Positions 5,293 to 44,579 of a stretch of DNA of 64,000 nt are shown piece by piece. Source of the DNA: Minisyncoccota bacterium (lineage in GTDB: Bacteria; Patescibacteriota; Minisyncoccia; Phycocordibacterales; Phycocordibacteraceae); NCBI GenBank assembly GCA_036405415.1, contig DASWXP010000002.1, positions 208,351-272,350 on the forward strand, written 5' to 3'. The position numbers were made by a program, and so were the translations under genes. Numbering within the stretch: position 1 is the stretch's first letter; the number at the start of each line of letters is the position of its first letter. The notes under the pieces were generated by a model, which saw only the letters and a list, made by a program, of their open reading frames with translations, was not told where the DNA came from and did no database searches.

Positions 5293-5595
5293 AGGACGTC
5301 AATGATTAGAAATAACTCTATTCAATATAACCTGCTGAAAGAATCGATCTTTCCAAATCTGCTGGCTGTCTGGGACGATGTTGGAACCTGTATTCTCGAA
5401 TGGTAAGGTTCGCTTGGCGGGAACACTCTGAGGAGTGGTCCTCTACTGGGAAGCTAGTTGGTGCGGTAATAGCGTCACCAAGGCACACAGACCCAGTTTG
5501 CGGAGTCGGATCAGCACATACTCGATGGGTTCGCCCACTCGAAGCTGGTTCGGCTCCGTTTTCTGTTGCTGAGGACCTGGGACGATGTTGGAACT

Positions 5596-6429
5596 TCAGC
5601 TTTGCCCAGTCTTGTCCGCAGATAGCATGGTCCTCTCCCGCGCATTACTGCTAAGAAGCTGTATAAGCTCTTTAGTTTTCGGGAACATATTAATATTAAT
5701 ACTCATCTCTGTGGTTCCTTCATTTGTACGAAATAGAGATTGAGCGAGCAATCGATACATTTTCTCGGGGTCCGAGAGCAAACTGGTCGCAAGCCCATTC
5801 TTATGAGACTCCTGGCCTACTATTAATTCAATTTCCTTCTCGATCTCTTGGGCAAGGTCTTCAATAGGACGACTCGCAAGTCCGGCCTCAATCACGGTCT
5901 CTATCTTGTTCAGCTTCTTATACTTCTTGTTTGCGAAGGAGCTTCCTCCAAACAATGCGTCTGTATACTTGTTAGCAAACATCTTGATCACGTAATCAAA
6001 GGGCGAAAGGAAGAAGTACTCTTTATCTAAGACTTTTCCCGAGAGAATCGTAGAGCCCTGCGCAAGAGTGAAGTGATCTTCGACGAGCTGGTTGTCTTCA
6101 CGCACCTTTCTCGGTGAACTAATGTCTATATCTGAGGGGAGACCGAACTTATCCGCATTGGCTTTGAGGTGTGCCTGAGTTCTGTATAGGTCAGGCAATT
6201 CTGTGTCTACTAACTCACCATCGTCATTTATAAGTAAGTGGGCCTTTAGTTCTGTGGCGTTAGTGAACAGCAGGATCGCGCCAGAACCCGCAACAGCGTA
6301 TCTAAGCTTCCCATCTTCTATTTGGGCGTTATGCTCGGCAAATGAAAATATTGGCTGCAATGCACTCTCTGGAGATCTCTCGTGCGTGCGCGCAGCAACA
6401 GGACTGCTTTGCATCCTTTCGATACTCAT
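5596..6429 (-). CDS. hypothetical protein (island-associated)
   Basis: 277-aa ORF in AT-richer DNA with no recognisable motifs. Confidence 0.4.
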   Translation of the reverse strand: MSIERMQSSPVAARTHERSPESALQPIFSFAEHNAQIEDGKLRYAVAGSGAILLFTNATELKAHLLINDDGELVDTELPDLYRTQAHLKANADKFGLPSDIDISSPRKVREDNQLVEDHFTLAQGSTILSGKVLDKEYFFLSPFDYVIKMFANKYTDALFGGSSFANKKYKKLNKIETVIEAGLASRPIEDLAQEIEKEIELIVGQESHKNGLATSLLSDPEKMYRLLAQSLFRTNEGTTEMSININMFPKTKELIQLLSSNARERTMLSADKTGQS

Positions 6430-6452: not shown

Positions 6453-6478
6453 TTGGCTGGCCGACTCGGATTCGAACC
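6453..6478 (-). other. tRNA 3'-end fragment (T-loop GGTTCGAATCC + acceptor 3' strand + G + CCA), Gln-type-like; putative att-site remnant
   Basis: The minus-sense read is GGTTCGAATCCGAGTCGGCCAGCCA. No complementary 5' acceptor strand or D/anticodon arms lie upstream, so this is not a full tRNA. It shares ...CCAGCCAA with the 3' end of tRNA-Gln at 19503. Confidence 0.4.
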
Positions 6479-6633
6479 TTGGTCGGTTAAGCCCGGGCTA
6501 GTCGGTTTAGGTCTTCTCGGGCTTCGCTAAACGACGCGTCTCGGGCGCTTCAAAAAAGTGACAAAAGTGACAGCCCTACGGATCTAATCTCATGAGTGAA
6601 CAAAGTCTTAAATGCTTTCATTATCGTGTTTCA

Positions 6634-6929
6634 ATATATCTATAGCCGCCCCCATGGCCGGGGACGACTACGGGTTGCGCTAGATAGGAATCTTGCGCTC
6701 CTCACGTACGGTGTACTGAGGGTAACGAGCAGCGTAAGCCGCTGTTACGATCTGTCCAGTGCGTACGTCACGATAAATGATTACCGTGCGGTAGCGAGGT
6801 TTAGTTTTCATTACTGAAGACCTTAGAGCTAATAATCGAACGACGCTGCCCCACAGAGGCAGCGTCTCTCATTTCTACGTGCGGGACGTCGTTCGATTAC
6901 CCCCTTAATGAGGACGGCTATAGATATAT
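6634..6929. repeat. 296-bp segment bounded by a 15-bp perfect (about 26-bp imperfect) inverted repeat ATATATCTATAGCCG / CGGCTATAGATATAT
   Basis: The left arm at 6634-6648 is the exact reverse complement of the right arm at 6915-6929, and flanking bases extend the imperfect match. The interior holds a 43-aa ORF and a nested 12-bp/9-bp stem structure (6836-6900). Confidence 0.6.
6680..6811 (-). CDS. small hypothetical protein (43 aa) inside the inverted-repeat-bounded segment
   Basis: MKTKPRYRTVIIYRDVRTGQIVTAAYAARYPQYTVREERKIPI; AAGG sits 8 nt upstream of the ATG. It was absent from the ORF track because it is under 60 aa. Confidence 0.3.
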   Translation of the reverse strand: MKTKPRYRTVIIYRDVRTGQIVTAAYAARYPQYTVREERKIPI

Positions 6930-6993
6930 AGAATCAAGGTGCTTCTACCGCTATCAATAGACTAGCATTTTCATAGAAACCGCTCCCTGTGCA

Positions 6994-7881
6994 CTAGTTA
7001 CTCCCTTTAGTTGTGGTAGAGGTCAGATTCGTAAAGTCTTGAAGTCCATGGATCTTTGCAATGGTAGCGAGATACTTCACGTAGCTAATGTCTGCTTGCT
7101 TAATTAGATAGGTTCCACCATCAATGAGAATCAGTACAGAATTTTCGGATTCATAGACCATGATTGCGTTGAAAGGACTCTGTACTCCAATTTCCTCACC
7201 ATTGAAATTTGAGTTTAGTCCGATACTTACAGCAACAGGTTTAGCGCCGCCAAGATATCTAGGGACAGATGAATACACAAAGAATGAGAACATGAAAAGT
7301 AAAATTGGCAGCGCAATGAGGAAGTACAGCAGACGATAGTAGGCGCCAAAGTAGATCACGATATTCTTCAAGGTAATCCGCATGGAATGCGCCTGCGCAA
7401 TCTCTTTATGAGATTTTTTTGCTACTGAGACACCAAAGAAAATCATTGCGACCCAGACGAAACCAAGAAAGTATATGAAGGACGGTGGGTTAATTGTTCT
7501 GCCAAGTAGAAGCGGAAATACAAAGAGCACAAAACTCAACGAGGAAGCCAGGCCAAATAATATGACTTTTAGTACGGAGATAAATATTGTCCTTAAGGCA
7601 CCCTTATTCTCTTTCAAATACTTATTTAGTACTTCTACTGCCTTAAGAAAACCGTAGAAGAAAGTTGATGGTAGAGCGACAAAAAAGAGAAATAGGCTGC
7701 CTGCGGTAAAGTACTGAACTTTCAAGAAGTTGAAGTCCCAGAAGCCGTAAAGCGCTAGATAGCTGTTCACGACAAGGAAGCCGAAAAAGGTCGAGCTGAC
7801 AGCAAACAAACTCACCCACTGAAGAGTGTTTGAAAGCCTGCTTTCTTGACGTGTGAACGGATTCATTTCGATAGTAAACAC
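6994..7881 (-). CDS. polytopic membrane protein, last gene of the LexA-headed defence-like operon
   Basis: 295 aa with at least 6 hydrophobic helices, on the same strand and 24 nt downstream of the Zn-ribbon gene. Confidence 0.5.
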   Translation of the reverse strand: MFTIEMNPFTRQESRLSNTLQWVSLFAVSSTFFGFLVVNSYLALYGFWDFNFLKVQYFTAGSLFLFFVALPSTFFYGFLKAVEVLNKYLKENKGALRTIFISVLKVILFGLASSLSFVLFVFPLLLGRTINPPSFIYFLGFVWVAMIFFGVSVAKKSHKEIAQAHSMRITLKNIVIYFGAYYRLLYFLIALPILLFMFSFFVYSSVPRYLGGAKPVAVSIGLNSNFNGEEIGVQSPFNAIMVYESENSVLILIDGGTYLIKQADISYVKYLATIAKIHGLQDFTNLTSTTTKGSN

Positions 7882-7905: not shown

Positions 7906-8991
7906 CTATTTGGACTTAACTAGCTTCAGTAAATCCTCCTCCCTTTCATATCCGTGCAGACGACCTTCCAGCATACCTAAACGATAACTAATACCATCGG
8001 TCATAAGTCGCCAGTTGGTATCCTGGAGCGTCTTTTTGATAAGCTTTTCCAGATCCTTGGAGCTGGCATACCCCTCCCTATCAGGCCGCTTTTCATACAC
8101 CACGAATGGAACGACGACATCCTTGGAAATCTCCGGGTTCTTGAATTGGAGCTTTATGTAGTCCGCCTTTTCGAGAACGGGAACGAGCAACTCTTCGAGT
8201 TCTATAATCTTCAGCTTCTTGAGCTTTGCGATTTTCTCGTACGATTCCTTGTTCTTCTCTTTCTCCTTTATCTCGTCCATAAGCCGCCCGATCCCCTCAA
8301 GGTTCGCCTTGGCTGCCATGAACTCCTGACCCTCTTTCTCGCTCAGGCAGAATCGCTCGCGATCCTTTTCAAAGTCTGGGTCTGACCTATCGACCATGCG
8401 CTCAATTTCTGAGATATCGGTATAGTCGCAATTCGGGCAGGTAACGACCGTAAACCATTTCTCGTCAGTAGACCTATCTTCCTCCACGACCTCTGCCTTA
8501 CATTTCGGACAGGTAGACTTCTCTCGCCTGAATTCTTCCCCATCGTCATAGAACGCACGACGCGGCATATGCTCCTGAGCACAGTCGTAGAAGAATAGGA
8601 CGCGATCCTTTCCGTCGAGTCCTGCCGAGTGATGGATCTTCGAGCTTACAAACATTAGACGTCCGCAAGTAAGGCAGCTTATGTCTTCAGGAGCTACGGC
8701 TGATTCGTAGAACTTATCGCTACGCTCGTCCCTTTGCATCCACTCCCTAATCGTCGCTTCTTTCTTCAGATATCTATTGCCCTTTATGAAATAGAGACTT
8801 ATACGCGTCACCGCATTGGATGTGCGTATCAGTTCATTCTCATCCACCTCTTTCTCAGGGTGCTTGTCCTTATACGTCTGCTTCAGTCCCTCAATGTCCG
8901 GCGTATGCTTCTCCCACGAACGGCATTTCTCGACAGTGTGCTTGTCGTAGAGGTCTGAGTAATATTGATGTGGTTTTAGACGAGGCTCCAT
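7906..8991 (-). CDS. Zn-ribbon-rich (three CxxC pairs) hypothetical protein, co-operonic with the CBASS-like genes
   Basis: 361 aa with CLTCG, CPKCK and CPNCD motifs; its start lies 1 nt after the E2-like gene stop. Confidence 0.5.
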   Translation of the reverse strand: MEPRLKPHQYYSDLYDKHTVEKCRSWEKHTPDIEGLKQTYKDKHPEKEVDENELIRTSNAVTRISLYFIKGNRYLKKEATIREWMQRDERSDKFYESAVAPEDISCLTCGRLMFVSSKIHHSAGLDGKDRVLFFYDCAQEHMPRRAFYDDGEEFRREKSTCPKCKAEVVEEDRSTDEKWFTVVTCPNCDYTDISEIERMVDRSDPDFEKDRERFCLSEKEGQEFMAAKANLEGIGRLMDEIKEKEKNKESYEKIAKLKKLKIIELEELLVPVLEKADYIKLQFKNPEISKDVVVPFVVYEKRPDREGYASSKDLEKLIKKTLQDTNWRLMTDGISYRLGMLEGRLHGYEREEDLLKLVKSK

Positions 8992-8992
8992 G

Positions 8993-9694
8993 TTATGGAC
9001 TTAGACGAATACTGTGCCTCTGAATCACGGAACGCAATTTTAATAAGGCAATCCATGCAGTGGGATGGCACTGCCTGATTTTTCCAGGACTAGTACAAAA
9101 GCACTTGCTCATTTCCGTTACCCGCTCTCTTCCCGAAAGAACCGCGCGTATGCGATCCCATTTTTTGTCCTTGCGCAGTTGACGGAGACACACCTGAACG
9201 TCCTCAACAGTTCCATTACCACTAGCGAAGGACTGGAAGACACCAGCTGCGCCATGCGCGTATTCTCCCCACGGCCACTTATGGTATTTGTCGAAATAAG
9301 TCTGCTCGTACAGGAAAGGGACTACGAGCTGATCGAGATACTTTATAAAAGAATAGCCTGTCCTTAGGAATTCTTGTTTCTCGACCGGTCCGCACAAGCA
9401 AGCATTACCACTCGTATAAAAGTGCCGATCTAGGACTTTTTCTATCGTGTCATCTTCCACTGTGAGGATAGGAATATCGTCAGCTTCCTTTCCTGGCTTA
9501 ATACGTATCTTATATGTCGCAGTAAGCACCTCACCTGGCGCAACCTGTCCGGACTGAATTAACCATGTAAAACCTGTCTTTGAATCGTACGCGGCAGTAA
9601 AAGTGAGACTGCCACTCACCTCACTACCGTCGGGACTAACGCTTAAGGTCGGGAGCTTTTCTTTAAGCCACTGCTTCTCACTTTCCGGAATCAT
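8993..9694 (-). CDS. prokaryotic E2 (UBC-fold)-like protein, candidate CBASS Cap2-short/E2-only component
   Basis: 'HFYTSGNACLCGP' resembles the E2 HPN..G.ICL active-site region. The start was set at MIPESEK (9694), overlapping the upstream stop by 17 nt. Confidence 0.4.
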   Translation of the reverse strand: MIPESEKQWLKEKLPTLSVSPDGSEVSGSLTFTAAYDSKTGFTWLIQSGQVAPGEVLTATYKIRIKPGKEADDIPILTVEDDTIEKVLDRHFYTSGNACLCGPVEKQEFLRTGYSFIKYLDQLVVPFLYEQTYFDKYHKWPWGEYAHGAAGVFQSFASGNGTVEDVQVCLRQLRKDKKWDRIRAVLSGRERVTEMSKCFCTSPGKIRQCHPTAWIALLKLRSVIQRHSIRLSP

Positions 9695-10592
9695 AGCCAC
9701 CCCAAGGTCGGTTTGGCGTGAAAGTATTCCCCGCCGTATATGCAACCGATGCTGCTGCCGCAGTGCGTACTGACTTCGAGGTTTCGCCTGTGTCCACAAA
9801 GGCCTCCTGCCAGTCTTCGACCTCATCCGAATCCTTGATTCTCTCAAGAACTACTTCAGCTGCCTGAGAAATAGCTCTCTTATCTGAATCTTCAACCAGC
9901 TGAGAAACAATGTTGTTTGTGTTCGCCGGATCAACAAGCTGCATAGAAGCAAAGTCATCCTTGAAAGACTCCATTACTTTAAGGAATGCCTTTCGAAGAT
10001 CACCCTTACTCTGATAACCAGAGAGAGCTTCTACAACGAACAGTTCCAGTACGAACGTCTTGATCTTCAAGTTATTACGATAAGCCCAGAGCTTGACCAG
10101 TCGAATCATCGGAACGCAGCCACTGTTCACGATATAATCAATATGTACTTTCAGATTCGTTTGCATTCTCTGCTTATCGCCGTTTACCAGATGGATGAAG
10201 ACGTCTTTGGTGTCTGTGATGAAACGTCCTGGAACCACGTCGATGTGGAAGTCGCCGGGAGCATCCGAGCCTTTCAGATCCAAGATACGTTCTGCCGATG
10301 CTTTGTGCGTAAGCAAATACTTCTCAGCAAGACGACTCGCCACGTCTTCGCGAATCTCCTTCAGAGAGCGTTCGTCTGAGCTTGGAAAATAGCAAACGAT
10401 GTCGAGGTCGTACCGATCACAAATCATTGTGCCCTTTCCCCTTGATCCGGCATATTTTATTACTGGATCATCACCAAATTCTTCACGAAGAAACTCGGTC
10501 ACTTCCTTCTTGTGCGCCTGCAAAGCTTCCTCCTGAGAATCCGAGAGATTCTGCGAAGCAAGCAGGTCATCCAAATATTCGTTAGGTGTCAT
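9678..10592 (-). CDS. cGAS/DncV-like nucleotidyltransferase (CD-NTase/SMODS-type Pol-beta NTase)
   Basis: 'IKYAGSRGKGTMICDRYDLDIV' is a GS-x9-DxD Pol-beta NTase motif very close to the CD-NTase 'GSyarGTaik.SDvDl' pattern. A third acidic residue lies in 'HIDVVPG'. The protein is 304 aa. Confidence 0.55.
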   Translation of the reverse strand: MTPNEYLDDLLASQNLSDSQEEALQAHKKEVTEFLREEFGDDPVIKYAGSRGKGTMICDRYDLDIVCYFPSSDERSLKEIREDVASRLAEKYLLTHKASAERILDLKGSDAPGDFHIDVVPGRFITDTKDVFIHLVNGDKQRMQTNLKVHIDYIVNSGCVPMIRLVKLWAYRNNLKIKTFVLELFVVEALSGYQSKGDLRKAFLKVMESFKDDFASMQLVDPANTNNIVSQLVEDSDKRAISQAAEVVLERIKDSDEVEDWQEAFVDTGETSKSVRTAAAASVAYTAGNTFTPNRPWGGYDSGK

Positions 10593-10601
10593 ACGATTCT
10601 T

Positions 10602-11771
10602 TTAGTTAATTGTTAATGCTAATTCGTACCCCTCTTCGATACGGTCATACACATGCAATTGAGGGCTTACATCTTTAAGTAATTCCCGTCCGCAAATTAC
10701 CGCAACAGGTGCAGGAACTGCAGCAAAGAGATGAAGCTTACTTTTTGCTCCGTGTTCGTTTTCAATTGCCCTGAGTGCGGACTGATATGTCCGCTGGAAA
10801 GCGTGCAAGGTCTCCTTGGTGGTCACAATCGAACGTCCTGGCTCTCTATCAACGGGAGCTATTTCATAAATGGTGAATTCAGCATCAATACTATTGGGCA
10901 ATGTGTCCGTCCCTATCTTGCCGCTCAACGATAGGAGTAGGGCGACTTTCTCCCGATCTGTACCCTGCTGAATTTGTTTACACTCAAACTGTACGGGATC
11001 TTCACTGCGCCACCGCCAGCCAGCCGGTTCATCTCTATGGTGCTGATAGAAATCTGACGCAATTTTATCACCCAAAGCGTTACCGAGGTGAACAAGAACT
11101 GGTATCCGGGCAAGAGGAAATACCGAAAGATGTCCGACTTGACGGCGTTCTATAGCGGGAGAAATCTGCCGTTCTACAACTTCATTCACTTTCGCGACAG
11201 CTGCAGTCCAGTAACTACCATCGACTTCCTGAGGCAAGGACTGCAAGTCAATCTCGATTGCTCGGTCATCACCCAGGTAACGAGGGTACCTACCTGCATC
11301 CAGAACAGCAGTTCGCACTTCCTCATTTGAGATAGAGACTGCGTCTCCTCGAATATTACCCATTATTCGAAGAACTACGGTCTCATGCTCGACACCCAAA
11401 CCTGTGAGGTACCTAATACGTGATTCGTGCTCGTGCTTATACTTGAGCAGAAGATCTTTCGGATACTGATCCACCTTATCGATAACTGCATGGCACTTGG
11501 TGCAAAGGAGCATGAGATTTGAAATCTGATTCCTTTCTGCAATTGGCATAGGATCATTACCCCGAGGACCACCCTTTGATCGCGCCACTATATGGGCGAT
11601 ATTAGAAAGCCTTACCTCATTGGTGGTCAGTTCATCTTCAAGCAGATACGCATTACATCCGTGAAATTCGCATCTACCACCTGCACGCGTCCACAGCTCA
11701 AAAACCACCGCGTCAGTGGCCTTAATCTTTGGAGCCTCTGTTGGCTCTGCTGCTGTGGCTGAGGTAGGCAT
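10602..11771 (-). CDS. Cap5-like effector: N-terminal HNH endonuclease + C-terminal ~280-aa sensor (SAVED-like) domain
   Basis: HNH motif: RCEFHGCNAYL...AHIVARSKGGPRGNDPMPIAERNQISNLMLLCTKCHAV. A large C-terminal domain follows with no obvious catalytic motif. Start set at MPTSATAAEP, 1 nt after the upstream stop. Confidence 0.5.
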   Translation of the reverse strand: MPTSATAAEPTEAPKIKATDAVVFELWTRAGGRCEFHGCNAYLLEDELTTNEVRLSNIAHIVARSKGGPRGNDPMPIAERNQISNLMLLCTKCHAVIDKVDQYPKDLLLKYKHEHESRIRYLTGLGVEHETVVLRIMGNIRGDAVSISNEEVRTAVLDAGRYPRYLGDDRAIEIDLQSLPQEVDGSYWTAAVAKVNEVVERQISPAIERRQVGHLSVFPLARIPVLVHLGNALGDKIASDFYQHHRDEPAGWRWRSEDPVQFECKQIQQGTDREKVALLLSLSGKIGTDTLPNSIDAEFTIYEIAPVDREPGRSIVTTKETLHAFQRTYQSALRAIENEHGAKSKLHLFAAVPAPVAVICGRELLKDVSPQLHVYDRIEEGYELALTIN

Positions 11772-11772
11772 A

Positions 11773-11982
11773 CTATTTCTTTCTACGGTTGTATGGCGAC
11801 TGATTTGGCGGCGCAAGCTTAATCTTCTTTTCAGAAGCCTTCGCACGTACTCCTGCTTCAGGCCTACCGAGCTTAAGCCCAATCACGCGCGTTGGCGTAT
11901 TACCCTTTGCGAGCTCTTTGAGCTGCTTCACCTCTTCGGGGTTCCACTTCTTACCTGCATTTTTAATGTACTTCTTCGTCAT
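11773..11982 (-). CDS. small basic protein (69 aa), possible DNA-binding/regulatory component
   Basis: Tightly coupled between the LexA-like and Cap5-like genes; 'WNPEEVKQLKELAKGNTPTRVIGLKLGR' is helix-turn-helix-like. Confidence 0.4.
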   Translation of the reverse strand: MTKKYIKNAGKKWNPEEVKQLKELAKGNTPTRVIGLKLGRPEAGVRAKASEKKIKLAPPNQSPYNRRKK

Positions 11983-14901: not shown

Positions 14902-15058
14902 TGGTTCGGTTTTGTAATTCCCGATGGCCAGATACACAAAAATCCCGCCACCAGGAGGACCCTTACGAGTATCCCTACCTAAGTTTCCCTAGGTAACCGA
15001 ACCAACGACCCTGATGACGGGGTTTTTACGTTGGTTCGGATTTTCGACCATATCCTTT
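14902..15058. repeat. three copies of GTTGGTTCGG(T/A)TTT (two direct, one inverted) upstream of the recombinase module
   Basis: Copies at 14902-14916 (+), 14995-15006 (reverse complement) and 15042-15058 (+). Confidence 0.35.
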
Positions 15059-15227
15059 GGAAACCAAAGGGGTTAGGCCATTTTTATTTAATTGTAGGCA
15101 GGTTCCCCTGCCGTCTTCTAATGGTATCGCAGTTCTTAGGGTTTGCTAAGCCTGTCCACGACCATGCGACGAATCCCTAGTTCTGCATAGACTATGCACC
15201 GGCCACCTGTCTGGCATCAATTACTAG

Positions 15228-15536: not shown

Positions 15537-16859
15537 ATGCAAACAGATCAATTTTCAGCCTTAATAGGCCAAGCAAACATACCCATAGCAGTTAAGGTTA
15601 AGTACGTCCTCTATGCCCGTAAATCTACCGAGTCCGACGAGAAGCAAGCACTGTCCATAGATTCTCAAGTGAAGGAGATGATGCAAATAGCCGAACGGGA
15701 GAATCTGGAAATCGTAGATATAAGACGAGAAGCCCATTCAGCCAAAGACTCAGGGCAAAGACCCGTATTCAAAGAAATTCTAGAAGACCTAAGAAGAGAA
15801 CGATTCAATGGAATCCTGGTCTGGCATCCCGACCGTTTAAGCAGAAACGCTGGTGATCTTGGGTCAGTCGTAGATCTAATGGATGAGAGACGGCTAGTCC
15901 AAATACGCACGTATGGACAGACATTTACGAATACACCGAGCGAGAAGTTTCTCCTGATGATTCTGTGTTCCCAAGCAAAACTAGAAAATGACAATAAAAG
16001 TATCAACGTAAAACGAGGACTGAAGACGAGAGTAGAAATGGGACTCTGGCCAGCTCCTGCCCCAACTGGATATCTCAAAGAAAAACGAATGGACCGAAAA
16101 TGCGAGACATTGATAGATCCAGAACGAGGACCGATTATAAAGAAAGTTTTCGAGAAAGTAGCGTATGAGAAGTGGAGTGGCAGGAAGATCTATAACTGGC
16201 TCAAGTTTGATCTGAACTTTAAGACCGCTGCGGGAAACAAGAATCTGAGTCTAAGTAACATTTTCACCATCCTTGAAAATCATTTCTATTACGGAGTATT
16301 TGAATATCCGAAGAACTCGGGAAACTGGTATCAGGGCAAACACGAGCCACTTGTTTCCAAAGAGCTGTTCGATCTAGTTCAGGAGCAGGTTAAGAGCCAG
16401 TTCGTTAGATCGGAGAATAAGGAGTTTGCGTTTACTCGACTAATTACCTGTGGCCTTTGTGGCTCGGGAATAACGGCTGACGAGAAGTTTAAGAAGCAGA
16501 AGAACGGGAATGTTCATCGCCACGTCTACTACGGATGTAACAAGTCAAAAGATAGAGCGTGCAAGAGCGGCTATATAAATGAGCCAGCACTTATAGATCA
16601 ATTCGTGGAACTTATGGATCGAATAGATATTAGCGAGATAGGAGTTAAGGAAAAGATAAAGTCTGAGGTTGAGCGACTGAGGAAATTCCAGCAGTCTTTT
16701 CTGGGCATTAAGAGTAAAACTGAGATCAGGGATATAGATATACGGAACTATGCAAAATACCTTCTGCGCGAAGGAGCTGATACTGAAAAACGAGAATTAC
16801 TCGGATGTTTAAGGAGCAAGATTCTTTTAAAGGAGAAAGTCATTACTTTATCTCCATAA
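15537..16859 (+). CDS. large serine recombinase (resolvase catalytic domain + recombinase domain + Zn ribbon)
   Basis: 'YARKSTESDEKQALSIDSQ' catalytic Ser region, 'VWHPDRLSRN', and a C-terminal 'CGLCGSGITADEK...YYGCN...C' zinc ribbon. Confidence 0.85.
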   Translation: MQTDQFSALIGQANIPIAVKVKYVLYARKSTESDEKQALSIDSQVKEMMQIAERENLEIVDIRREAHSAKDSGQRPVFKEILEDLRRERFNGILVWHPDRLSRNAGDLGSVVDLMDERRLVQIRTYGQTFTNTPSEKFLLMILCSQAKLENDNKSINVKRGLKTRVEMGLWPAPAPTGYLKEKRMDRKCETLIDPERGPIIKKVFEKVAYEKWSGRKIYNWLKFDLNFKTAAGNKNLSLSNIFTILENHFYYGVFEYPKNSGNWYQGKHEPLVSKELFDLVQEQVKSQFVRSENKEFAFTRLITCGLCGSGITADEKFKKQKNGNVHRHVYYGCNKSKDRACKSGYINEPALIDQFVELMDRIDISEIGVKEKIKSEVERLRKFQQSFLGIKSKTEIRDIDIRNYAKYLLREGADTEKRELLGCLRSKILLKEKVITLSP

Positions 16860-19315: not shown

Positions 19316-19502
19316 GCGGACCTCGTGGCTACAGATTTAAAGCCAACTGCCCTCTGCTAAAATCCTCAACCATACTGAATAAGGTCTTTTGTTAGAGGGG
19401 TTCGAATCTTAACTACTTCGCACGGGATTAGGACTCGAATTTCGAGCTTCAAAATGCCTTTTGTTTATTGACGCGTCTCGAGCGCGATAACCTAGCACGA
19501 GT

Positions 19503-19576
19503 TGGCTGGGAGACTAGGGATCGAACCTAGATTGACGGGACCAAAACCCGGTGTCCTACCATTAGACGATCTCCCA
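19503..19576 (-). tRNA. tRNA-Gln (anticodon UUG)
   Basis: The cloverleaf was folded by hand. Acceptor is TGGGAGA/TCTCCCA, anticodon loop UUUUGGU, T-loop GGTTCGATCCC, with G73 and an encoded CCA. It aligns with E. coli tRNA-Gln. Confidence 0.85.
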
Positions 19577-44057: not shown

Positions 44058-44132
44058 GGGCCAGATGGCGAAGTGGTAACGCTGCGGATTGCAAACCCGC
44101 TATGCACGGGTTCGATTCCCGTTCTGGCCTCC
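44058..44132 (+). tRNA. tRNA-Cys (anticodon GCA)
   Basis: Acceptor GGCCAGA/TCTGGCC, anticodon loop UUGCAAA, T-loop GGTTCGATTCC, encoded CCA. Confidence 0.8.
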
Positions 44133-44136
44133 ATAC

Positions 44137-44219
44137 TGCCGGGGTGATGGAATGGTAGACATAGGGGTCTTAAACACCCCAGGCAGCAATGCCATGCGGG
44201 TTCGAGTCCCGCCCCCGGT
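44137..44219 (+). tRNA. tRNA-Leu (anticodon UAA, long variable arm)
   Basis: Anticodon stem GGGGU/ACCCC with loop CUUAAAC, long variable arm, T-loop GGTTCGAGTCC. Confidence 0.8.
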
Positions 44220-44273
44220 ACCCTGGGAATTGGTATTGAATTCAGGGCGCTTCTTATGTAGAATGCGCCTGTA

Positions 44274-44346
44274 TCCGCCTATAGCTCAGCTGGTAGAGCA
44301 CTCGCCTCTTAAGCGATTGGTCCTTGGTTCGAGTCCAAGTGGGCGG
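44274..44346 (+). tRNA. tRNA-Lys (anticodon CUU)
   Basis: Acceptor CCGCCUA/UGGGCGG, D-arm GCTCAGCTGGTAGAGC, anticodon loop CUCUUAA, T-loop GGTTCGAGTCC. Confidence 0.75.
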
Positions 44347-44357
44347 ACTAGAGAAAA

Positions 44358-44382
44358 GGAGAGGTCTTCGGATCTCTCTTTT
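44358..44382 (+). terminator. UUCG-tetraloop hairpin + T5 inside the tRNA array
   Basis: GAGAGGTC-TTCG-GATCTCTC followed by TTTTT, lying between tRNA-Lys and tRNA-Leu(UAG). Confidence 0.5.
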
Positions 44383-44400
44383 TCTGTTAGGATACGGAGA

Positions 44401-44481
44401 CGCTGGAGTGGCGAAATGGTATACGCGCCTGCCTTAGGAGCAGGTCCCTTCGGGGGTGGAGGTTCGAGTCCTCTCTCCAGC
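44401..44481 (+). tRNA. tRNA-Leu (anticodon UAG, long variable arm)
   Basis: Acceptor GCTGGAG/CTCCAGC, anticodon stem CCTGC/GCAGG with loop CUUAGGA, long variable arm. Confidence 0.8.
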
Positions 44482-44579
44482 ACACACTTGACTTTTTGTA
44501 CAAAATAGTGTTATTTTAGTCCCAGATTCCGTGATCCTTGAGAACACGGTGCAACCACACTCAGCCAAAGGAGCTGGAC

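Follow-up and report, generated by a model that had tools for sequence, protein, structure and literature searches.

In the mRNAs of hok and aapA3, a small open reading frame (ORF) is combined with transient local hairpins that give way to a more stable long-distance helix joining the 5′ end to the 3′ end (PMC6733600). A comparable arrangement is described here for a module at the end of a low-GC island in a Minisyncoccota bacterium (contig DASWXP010000002.1), where two inverted-repeat arms enclose a 43-amino-acid (43-aa) ORF on the minus strand. The window, that is, the whole 64 kb stretch of DNA that was analyzed, contains one such module. As in hok of plasmid R1 and aapA/IsoA of Helicobacter, the small ORF would lie in a compact mRNA with pairing ends. 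The reading put forward here, in which we have reasonable but not high confidence, is that the arms form a long-range 5′-3′ RNA helix (P1) closing a structured mRNA for a genuine 43-aa protein. The RNA structure, its conservation, covariation and strand bias, and the coding status of the ORF are computational results.

A second precedent is the RNase III stalk, in which the sequences flanking a mature RNA pair with each other, as in the 16S and 23S rRNA precursors and at mRNA sites of phages T7 and lambda. Likewise, the sequences on the two sides of the module are predicted to pair almost perfectly over more than 20 bp, a few of the pairs being non-canonical, and by analogy cleavage of this duplex is a hypothetical step. 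The unit may also sit in a longer transcript, as in the stalks; in the window it follows a gene for a 295-aa protein, and no terminator was found between the two. Unlike the rRNA stalks, it encloses a 43-codon mRNA, and one strand of the helix can also be taken up by an alternative local hairpin at the 3′ end. Long-range mRNA helices with structured leaders are a known kind of structure; this instance, a conserved module of about 300 nt around an unnamed domain in mobile elements of the candidate phyla radiation (CPR), is not a known one.

An inverted repeat around a small gene

The arms have an exact 15-nt core, ATATATCTATAGCCG and its perfect reverse complement (Table 1), and, at 86% complementarity, the inverted repeat reaches 29 nt. 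When as many as two mismatches are allowed, the two arms are the sole occurrences of the core in the window, and two matches were obtained in none of 100 dinucleotide-preserving shuffles of the window. A 326-nt segment folded much more stably than its shuffles, with z scores of −8.8 for the minus strand and −7.4 for the plus strand. The outer part of the 5′ arm is A/U-rich and its inner part is GCCGUCCUC; among the pairs between the 5′ arm and the inner part of the 3′ arm, GGGGGCGGC, two are U·G. A first-pass annotation of this DNA had recorded the 15-nt repeat and had taken it to bound a discrete segment. Both points hold: the repeat is longer than was recorded, and it delimits a functional unit.

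The same annotation suggested a miniature inverted-repeat transposable element (MITE), and terminal inverted repeats of 15–29 nt around a unit of roughly 300 bp at an island edge would suit a MITE-like or other transposable mini-element in which the small gene is present by chance. The Correia (NEMIS) repeats of Neisseria have terminal inverted repeats that, once transcribed, give a long hairpin open to cutting by RNase III, and the terminal repeats of the module, if transcribed, would form a long RNase III-cleavable hairpin of this kind. Unlike Correia repeats, which are multi-copy, non-coding and mobile, the module is coding, syntenic and single-copy in the window. Two scans of sequence collections with a protein-coding pattern gave one match per locus, with no contig carrying more than one locus per scan, and when viral contigs were scanned with the 15-mer, the 65 matches were every one single and unpaired and were taken as chance. 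No direct repeat or target-site duplication was found around the arms (flanks cattatcg and aggtgctt). The unit encodes a conserved protein, it keeps its position beside orthologous genes in related CPR elements, and its arms diverge along with the gene, with no shared family sequence. A transposable mini-element is highly improbable on these observations, and the earlier suggestion was abandoned.

The 43-aa ORF is a genuine protein-coding gene of an unnamed small-protein family. It is judged to be coding from its homologues, its pattern of substitution and its confident predicted fold. An exhaustive phmmer search of 1.8 billion (1.8e9) representative proteins returned 13 homologues at E < 1e-3, several of which are 41–44 aa long and 53%–61% identical to the query. 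Profile searches gathered 295 relatives, and 88 with the clade profile; among these the precomputed Pfam annotation held no domain or name. The ratio of nonsynonymous to synonymous change (pN/pS) in pairwise comparisons of the family was 0.21–0.50, with synonymous sites near saturation. The AlphaFold model is a β-β-α-β mini-fold with a predicted local distance difference test score (pLDDT) of 91.5; the protein sequence is basic and hydrophilic, and the protein is modeled as a soluble unit. The domain, with the consensus YRDxxTGxxVTxxYAxxHPxTTVRE, is often duplicated in actinobacterial proteins and occurs also in viral contigs. The sequence AAGG lies 9 nt 5′ of the ATG. The minus-strand ORF noted in the first pass is upheld.

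Other searches with this protein were negative. No significant match to a named family was obtained in Pfam, PHROGs, NCBIfam or the sequences of the PDB, and fold searches with the model gave nothing significant in the PDB or BFVD. With the 43-aa ORF as sole query, a word-indexed protein search yielded no homologue, an exact-sequence look-up returned no record for either the ORF or its 295-aa neighbor, and tblastn against 50,697 phage genomes gave no match.

To follow the repeat across the family, relatives were gathered in two ways: from the contigs of homologues, and by scanning metagenome and viral collections with a hand-designed degenerate codon pattern for the small protein, validated on known loci before scanning. 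The architecture recurs in at least nine other lineages from Patescibacteria (CPR) metagenomes: a 5′ arm some 95 nt ahead of the start codon, a small ORF, and a 3′ arm some 20 nt past the stop codon. The same geometry was seen at loci L070, L075/L138/L096, L082, L147, L191, L192, L193 and L194, and a looser form at L134 and L116. Arm length at these loci is 19–34 nt; the 5′ arm ends 91–108 nt ahead of the ATG (in L147, about 70 nt), and the 3′ arm begins 13–29 nt past the stop codon. Flanking-repeat scores were 27–50 in loci with the module versus 11–25 in about 70 other members of the family. The inverted repeat is a conserved feature of the close clade of the small gene. In Rfam 15 the module found no match at the gathering threshold, a search at E values up to 10 gave only two chance-level matches, and the relatives were unmatched as well.

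RNA helix or DNA site

The pair set of P1 was defined with RNAalifold on an alignment of the arms from nine lineages, which have diverged but can still be recognized as homologous. It comprises 24 pairs, with 95.8% of the cells paired versus 80.4% in shuffles, and 16 of the 24 pairs show compensatory double changes versus 6.6 in shuffles; for both measures, none of 500 shuffles reached the observed value. Sliding the register of the alignment reduced pairing to 31%–54%. At two fixed positions of P1, U·G is the commonest pair, in six of the nine sequences each. When arm mismatches were scored symmetrically, a manual tally gave 21 G·U pairs on the sense strand versus 8 on the antisense strand. 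The sense strand was also the more stable in eight of nine lineages for the P1 duplex (p = 0.027), in all nine for the 3′ hairpin (p = 0.004) and in eight of nine for the whole module. Between L075 and L138, five changes have occurred in one arm and none in the other, and all but one of the five preserve or re-establish RNA pairing; the arms of this pair have not been homogenized.

Inside the module, the leader contains an outer stem of 13 bp (P2, TAATCGAACGACG) and an inner hairpin of 9 bp with a 7-nt loop (P3, GACGCTGCC/GGCAGCGTC). The two overlap by 4 nt (6842–6845), so they cannot both form at full length at once. Nested stem-loops had been noted in the first pass; they are present and are conserved in relatives, with corrections to the outer stem (13 rather than 12 bp) and to the loop (7 rather than 8 nt). 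In 10 of 11 folded leaders a closing helix P2 and a hairpin P3 lie directly 5′ of a conserved AAAGGUCGAAUUA, and the leader helix of L075 can be drawn by hand. Stems at the position of P3 covary in relatives (GGCUGU/ACAGCC, GACUG/CAGUC, GGCGUG/CACGCC and GCUACC/GGUAGC). This conservation of P2 and P3 was established from single-sequence folds and a six-sequence consensus, as distinct from a family-wide alignment. A covariance model of the leader built on the Saccharibacteria-type subgroup recovered that subgroup only and missed the window, L070, L193 and L116.

At the other end of the module, a local 3′ hairpin of 8–13 bp is present in all nine lineages, with energies of −14 to −22 kcal/mol. 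It was documented sequence by sequence; its 5′ strand was inconsistently aligned by MAFFT. Its tail is A/U-rich and scores as a terminator in L070 only. This hairpin uses the inner half of the 3′ arm and is thus mutually exclusive with P1. Past the stop codon, the spacer directly repeats the inner 5′ arm (GUCGUCCCC in the window versus GCCGUCCUC), so that the inner 3′ arm has two possible partners, the spacer in the 3′ hairpin or the distant 5′ arm in P1. In full-length RNA the closed form with P1 was favored over local-only folds by 12–29 kcal/mol in 10 of 10 lineages. The stop codon, as read from the sequences, stands a constant 6–10 nt ahead of the spacer strand. The conserved U·G pairs, the sense-strand bias and the competing, conserved local hairpins are signatures of an RNA; a DNA site needs none of them.

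Several points weigh against an RNA helix. Covariation alone fits an RNA helix and a pair of inverted DNA sites kept alike equally well, and the conserved U·G positions could reflect an asymmetry that two DNA sites have inherited. Both the excess of G·U (21 versus 8) and the strand-energy tests are of modest weight, and the lineages are related by descent. The outer halves of both arms are assumed to be transcribed. If the 3′ hairpin truly terminates transcription, the outer 10–15 nt of the 3′ arm would be outside the RNA, yet they covary. A sigma-70-like promoter was not found in the window, and sigma-70 scans were uninformative there and in the relatives. Close homologues at L066, L081, L118, L146 and L170 have no repeat, which indicates that the repeat is not essential for the protein. 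Finally, both orientations of the module occur among relatives, as expected of an invertible segment.

The last point bears on the main rival explanation, in which the arms would be recombination sites and a site-specific or homologous recombinase would flip the small-gene cassette, altering its expression or that of its neighbors (phase variation). Like invertons and segments of the Hin/Gin type, the module has inverted repeats of about 20–34 nt around a few hundred base pairs and shows opposite orientations between relatives; its arm length of 19–34 nt resembles that of hix and gix sites. Relative to a conserved gene for a 361-aa protein, the small gene is co-directional in the window and convergent in L075 (46% identity, 1e-108), L096 and L191. 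The flank on the side of the attachment site (att), with its 9-mer pairs and an ACTCGG-type tRNA-like remnant, has a constant orientation; the DNA similarity of this flank (z = 4.2 to L075 and 8.4 to L070) is weaker evidence. L116, which encodes the closest protein relative of the window ORF among the compared pairs (76% aa identity), is apparently in the opposite orientation as judged from a short flank motif. The island also encodes a serine recombinase, for which "DNA invertase" is a secondary match. The module has been inverted in evolution, probably more than once.

Evidence for a working switch is weak. Orientation is uniform within lineages, in 7 of 7 L070-type and 9 of 9 L075-type contigs among the assemblies, L138 being about 6% diverged. 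No recombinase is present in the sequenced flanks (at most 4–6 kb per side, often much less) of L069–L075, L082 and L191–L194, and that of the window lies 8.6 kb from the module and is a 440-aa protein of the serine integrase type. Unlike invertons, the module has no adjacent invertase, no heterogeneity within a lineage among the assemblies and imperfect arms, only 76%–100% identical and unhomogenized, together with strong conservation of an RNA type. A switch would leave the conserved U·G pairs, the sense-strand bias and the leader, stop-codon and 3′ hairpins unexplained. An invertible switch is for these reasons unlikely, and inversion is regarded as a tolerated by-product of a self-contained, repeat-bounded unit. 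The invertible switch or recombinase target suggested in the first pass survives as an evolutionary inversion (L075, L096 and L191); a working device is unlikely.

A proposed closing helix in the small-gene messenger

According to the closing-helix reading, P1 of about 24–30 bp, or 29–35 bp with its extension, would close a minus-strand transcript of roughly 300 nt. From 5′ to 3′ this transcript would consist of the 5′ strand of P1, the leader, the start region, the ORF, the stop-codon hairpin, the spacer and the 3′ strand of P1. In the leader domain P2 would enclose P3 beside the conserved GUCGAUUAUUAG, and the start region would be A/U-rich. Transcription through both arms is inferred from extended −10 boxes (TGGTATAAT) that in L070 and L082 stand just upstream of the 5′ arm, and from the lack of a terminator after the upstream gene in the window.

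The two partners of the inner 3′ arm suggest an order of events. Pairing with the spacer would give the terminator-like local 3′ hairpin, which would be kinetically favored, and pairing with the distant 5′ arm would give P1, the thermodynamically favored form. Local hairpins would form during transcription, and the finished or read-through RNA would then snap into a closed panhandle. A long RNA duplex is a classical substrate of RNase III, and P1, which would hide both RNA ends, is of suitable length. The helix would excise and/or stabilize the small mRNA and gate its translation, whatever the flanks. Perhaps due to the short distance between the stop codon and the spacer, a terminating ribosome could also bias the choice between the 3′ hairpin and P1. 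Since such a unit would be self-contained, inversion across the arms would be tolerated, which would account for the two orientations among relatives. Cleavage or locking of the RNA and a role for the protein are likewise proposals drawn from these features.

The logic resembles that of hok and aapA in that local hairpins compete with the closed form, which here is the favored one. In contrast to those mRNAs, the helix is far longer (24–35 bp), the ribosome-binding site lies outside it, the product is a soluble, basic, conserved domain rather than a hydrophobic toxin, and an antitoxin RNA is only hypothetical. A special case of the RNA reading would nevertheless be a type-I-toxin-like "locked" mRNA, in which the 5′-3′ helix blocks a harmful small protein until the 3′ end is trimmed and an antisense RNA ending at P3 serves as the antidote, as in hok/sok and aapA/IsoA. 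The computed long-distance helix, the competing metastable local hairpins and the small ORF are all consistent with it. On the antisense (plus) strand of the window, P3 and the TCTCATTTCT that follows it score as a terminator, and the module is found among defense or cargo genes, a cyclic-oligonucleotide-based antiphage signaling system (CBASS) in the window and restriction-type genes in L192 and L193. Against this stand the hydrophilic, basic protein with its modeled soluble β/α fold, which is no membrane peptide, and the common occurrence of the same domain without the repeat, including its duplication in actinobacterial proteins. P1 does not involve the ribosome-binding region, the tail of the antisense terminator, as read from the sequences, is not conserved in L070, L193 and L116, and no antisense promoter was found in the window. 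A locked toxin mRNA is accordingly quite improbable. Membership in the type I toxins or in the RNase III stalk family is not claimed; a hydrophobic, membrane-active product like that of the type I toxins is lacking.

A bolder form of the closing-helix reading can be stated, which we offer as speculation and expect rather not to hold. The module would represent a previously unrecognized class of self-locking messengers in CPR mobile elements, in which an end-to-end helix of 24–35 bp, bearing the conserved U·G pairs, competes with a 3′ hairpin 6–10 nt past the stop codon. Translation or nuclease trimming would select the inert closed or the active open RNA and would thereby time a new nucleic-acid-binding mini-protein for the life cycle of the element or for defense, with hok/aapA-like logic and an unrelated soluble product.

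The island and its relatives

The module stands at the end of an island of about 13 kb with a GC content of 47%, versus 59%. A minus-strand tRNA-Gln gene marks the island, and a decayed tRNA-Gln-like 3′ end that matches 25 of 32 positions of the tRNA-Gln 3′ end lies by the module, as the tRNA fragment at the island edge noted in the first pass had indicated. The island is bracketed by two copies of a 16-nt direct repeat, GACGCGTCTCG(G/A)GCGC, that agree at 15 of 16 positions. The tRNA-Gln gene is 16 nt from one of them, and the decayed tRNA-like end about 45 nt from the other. These repeats are probably attachment-site cores. The identical tandem 9-mer motif is found in the otherwise unalignable L070 (about 1343–1360), and analogous 9-mer pairs of other sequences occur in L075 (about 2697–2715) and L082 (about 205–225). 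The 9-mers are probably binding sites for an element-encoded protein. Genes of the island include those for a serine integrase, a LexA/CI-type repressor, a ParB-methylase, a small-terminase-like helix-turn-helix (HTH) protein and the CBASS pair, together with a LOOT RNA (RF03000).

The LOOT RNA scored 78.7 bits in the window and 80 bits in L075 (7057–7185, minus strand). In the island and in the syntenic Saccharibacteria-type element it is found just downstream of the gene for the small-terminase-like HTH protein. From this placement, the orphan RNA seems to be part of a family of CPR integrative elements.

The 361-aa protein, usually the neighbor of the module, has four CxxC pairs and no family match. 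Its orthologues (41%–66% identity) were found at 16 loci, almost all in metagenome-assembled genomes of Patescibacteria, with one labeled Gammaproteobacteria and a few unclassified, a distribution that makes a CPR bacterium the very probable host; only L096 among these 16 carries the module, and no orthologue was found in viral contigs. The CBASS-type pair, in which a SMODS nucleotidyltransferase (304 aa) precedes an HNH-SAVED effector (426 aa), is present as cargo. The ORFs of 277 and 295 aa that flank the module gave no match in Pfam, PHROGs or NCBIfam; the latter looks by eye like a multi-pass membrane protein, and the former is outside the 16-nt direct repeat, yet low in GC. Just outside the island, where the GC content starts falling, a perfect 18-nt direct repeat (CTGGGACGATGTTGGAAC, copies 207 nt apart) may be the trace of another insertion boundary. 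A 284-aa ORF is listed with a TTG start that makes it run 170 nt into the end of the SMODS gene, and its true start is probably further downstream. Elsewhere in the window, four tRNA genes lie within 425 nt.

Other identities for the module were considered and dropped: a retron-like noncoding RNA, as there is no reverse transcriptase nearby; a CBASS-related RNA, as CBASS is absent from the relatives; a retroregulator of the lambda sib type, as both arms are on one side of att; and a pair of back-to-back terminators, as the 5′-end hairpin is only 4–5 bp and weaker on the antisense strand.

Table 1. Positions in the window of the module, its parts and the features of the island and its surroundings
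Feature	Position	Strand	Details
P1 5′ strand (5′ arm of inverted repeat)	6908–6936	−	exact core 6915–6929
P1 3′ strand (3′ arm of inverted repeat)	6627–6655	−	exact core 6634–6648
Leader helix P2, 5′ strand	6887–6899	−	UAAUCGAACGACG
Leader helix P2, 3′ strand, and conserved motif	6829–6845	−	CGUCGUUCGAUUA-UUAG; stem 6833–6845; counterpart in relatives AAAGGUCGAAUUAUUAG
Leader hairpin P3	6842–6866	−	GACGCUGCC, 7-nt loop, GGCAGCGUC; strands 6842–6850 and 6858–6866
AAGG	6821–6824	−	5′ of the ATG
43-aa ORF	6680–6811	−	MKTKPRYRTVIIYRDVRTGQIVTAAYAARYPQYTVREERKIPI; ATG 6809–6811, TAG 6680–6682
Stop-codon hairpin	6677–6698	−	GCGC..AGAU/AUCU..GCGC; equivalents around stop codon in relatives
Local 3′ hairpin	6642–6671	−	GUAGUCGUCCCCG / UGGGGGCGGCUAU, 13 bp
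Tandem 9-mers	6554–6571	+	AAAAGTGAC x2; between module and island end
Island end	6455–6549	−	16-nt direct repeat GACGCGTCTCGGGCGC (6534–6549) and decayed tRNA-Gln-like 3′ end (6455–6490)
16-nt direct repeat, second copy	19471–19486
tRNA-Gln	19503–19576	−
277-aa ORF	5596–6429	−
295-aa ORF	6994–7881	−
361-aa protein gene	7906–8991	−
284-aa ORF	8993–9847	−
CBASS-type pair	9678–11882	−	SMODS gene 9678–10592
LOOT RNA	14956–15079	−	RF03000
Serine recombinase	15537–16859
18-nt direct repeat	5370–5387 and 5577–5594
tRNA-Cys, -Leu (TAA), -Lys, -Leu (TAG)	44059–44483	+

To our knowledge, hardly any experimental work has been done on CPR bacteria (Patescibacteria), and only very few regulatory RNAs have been described in them. 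The module adds a candidate structured-RNA family of about 300 nt, supported by covariation and absent from Rfam, and an unnamed, widespread small-protein domain with a confident predicted fold, which is found also in phage contigs and is duplicated in actinobacteria. It carries a caution as well, since the "terminal inverted repeats" that flank a small ORF can represent the closing helix of an RNA and not a transposon or an inverton. For the organisms themselves, the locus outlines a recognizable family of CPR integrative elements, composed of a tRNA-side end, a 9-mer pair, the module, the protein with four CxxC pairs, a ParB-methylase, a small-terminase-like HTH protein, a LOOT RNA and a serine integrase, in which the orphan LOOT RNA gains a genomic home.

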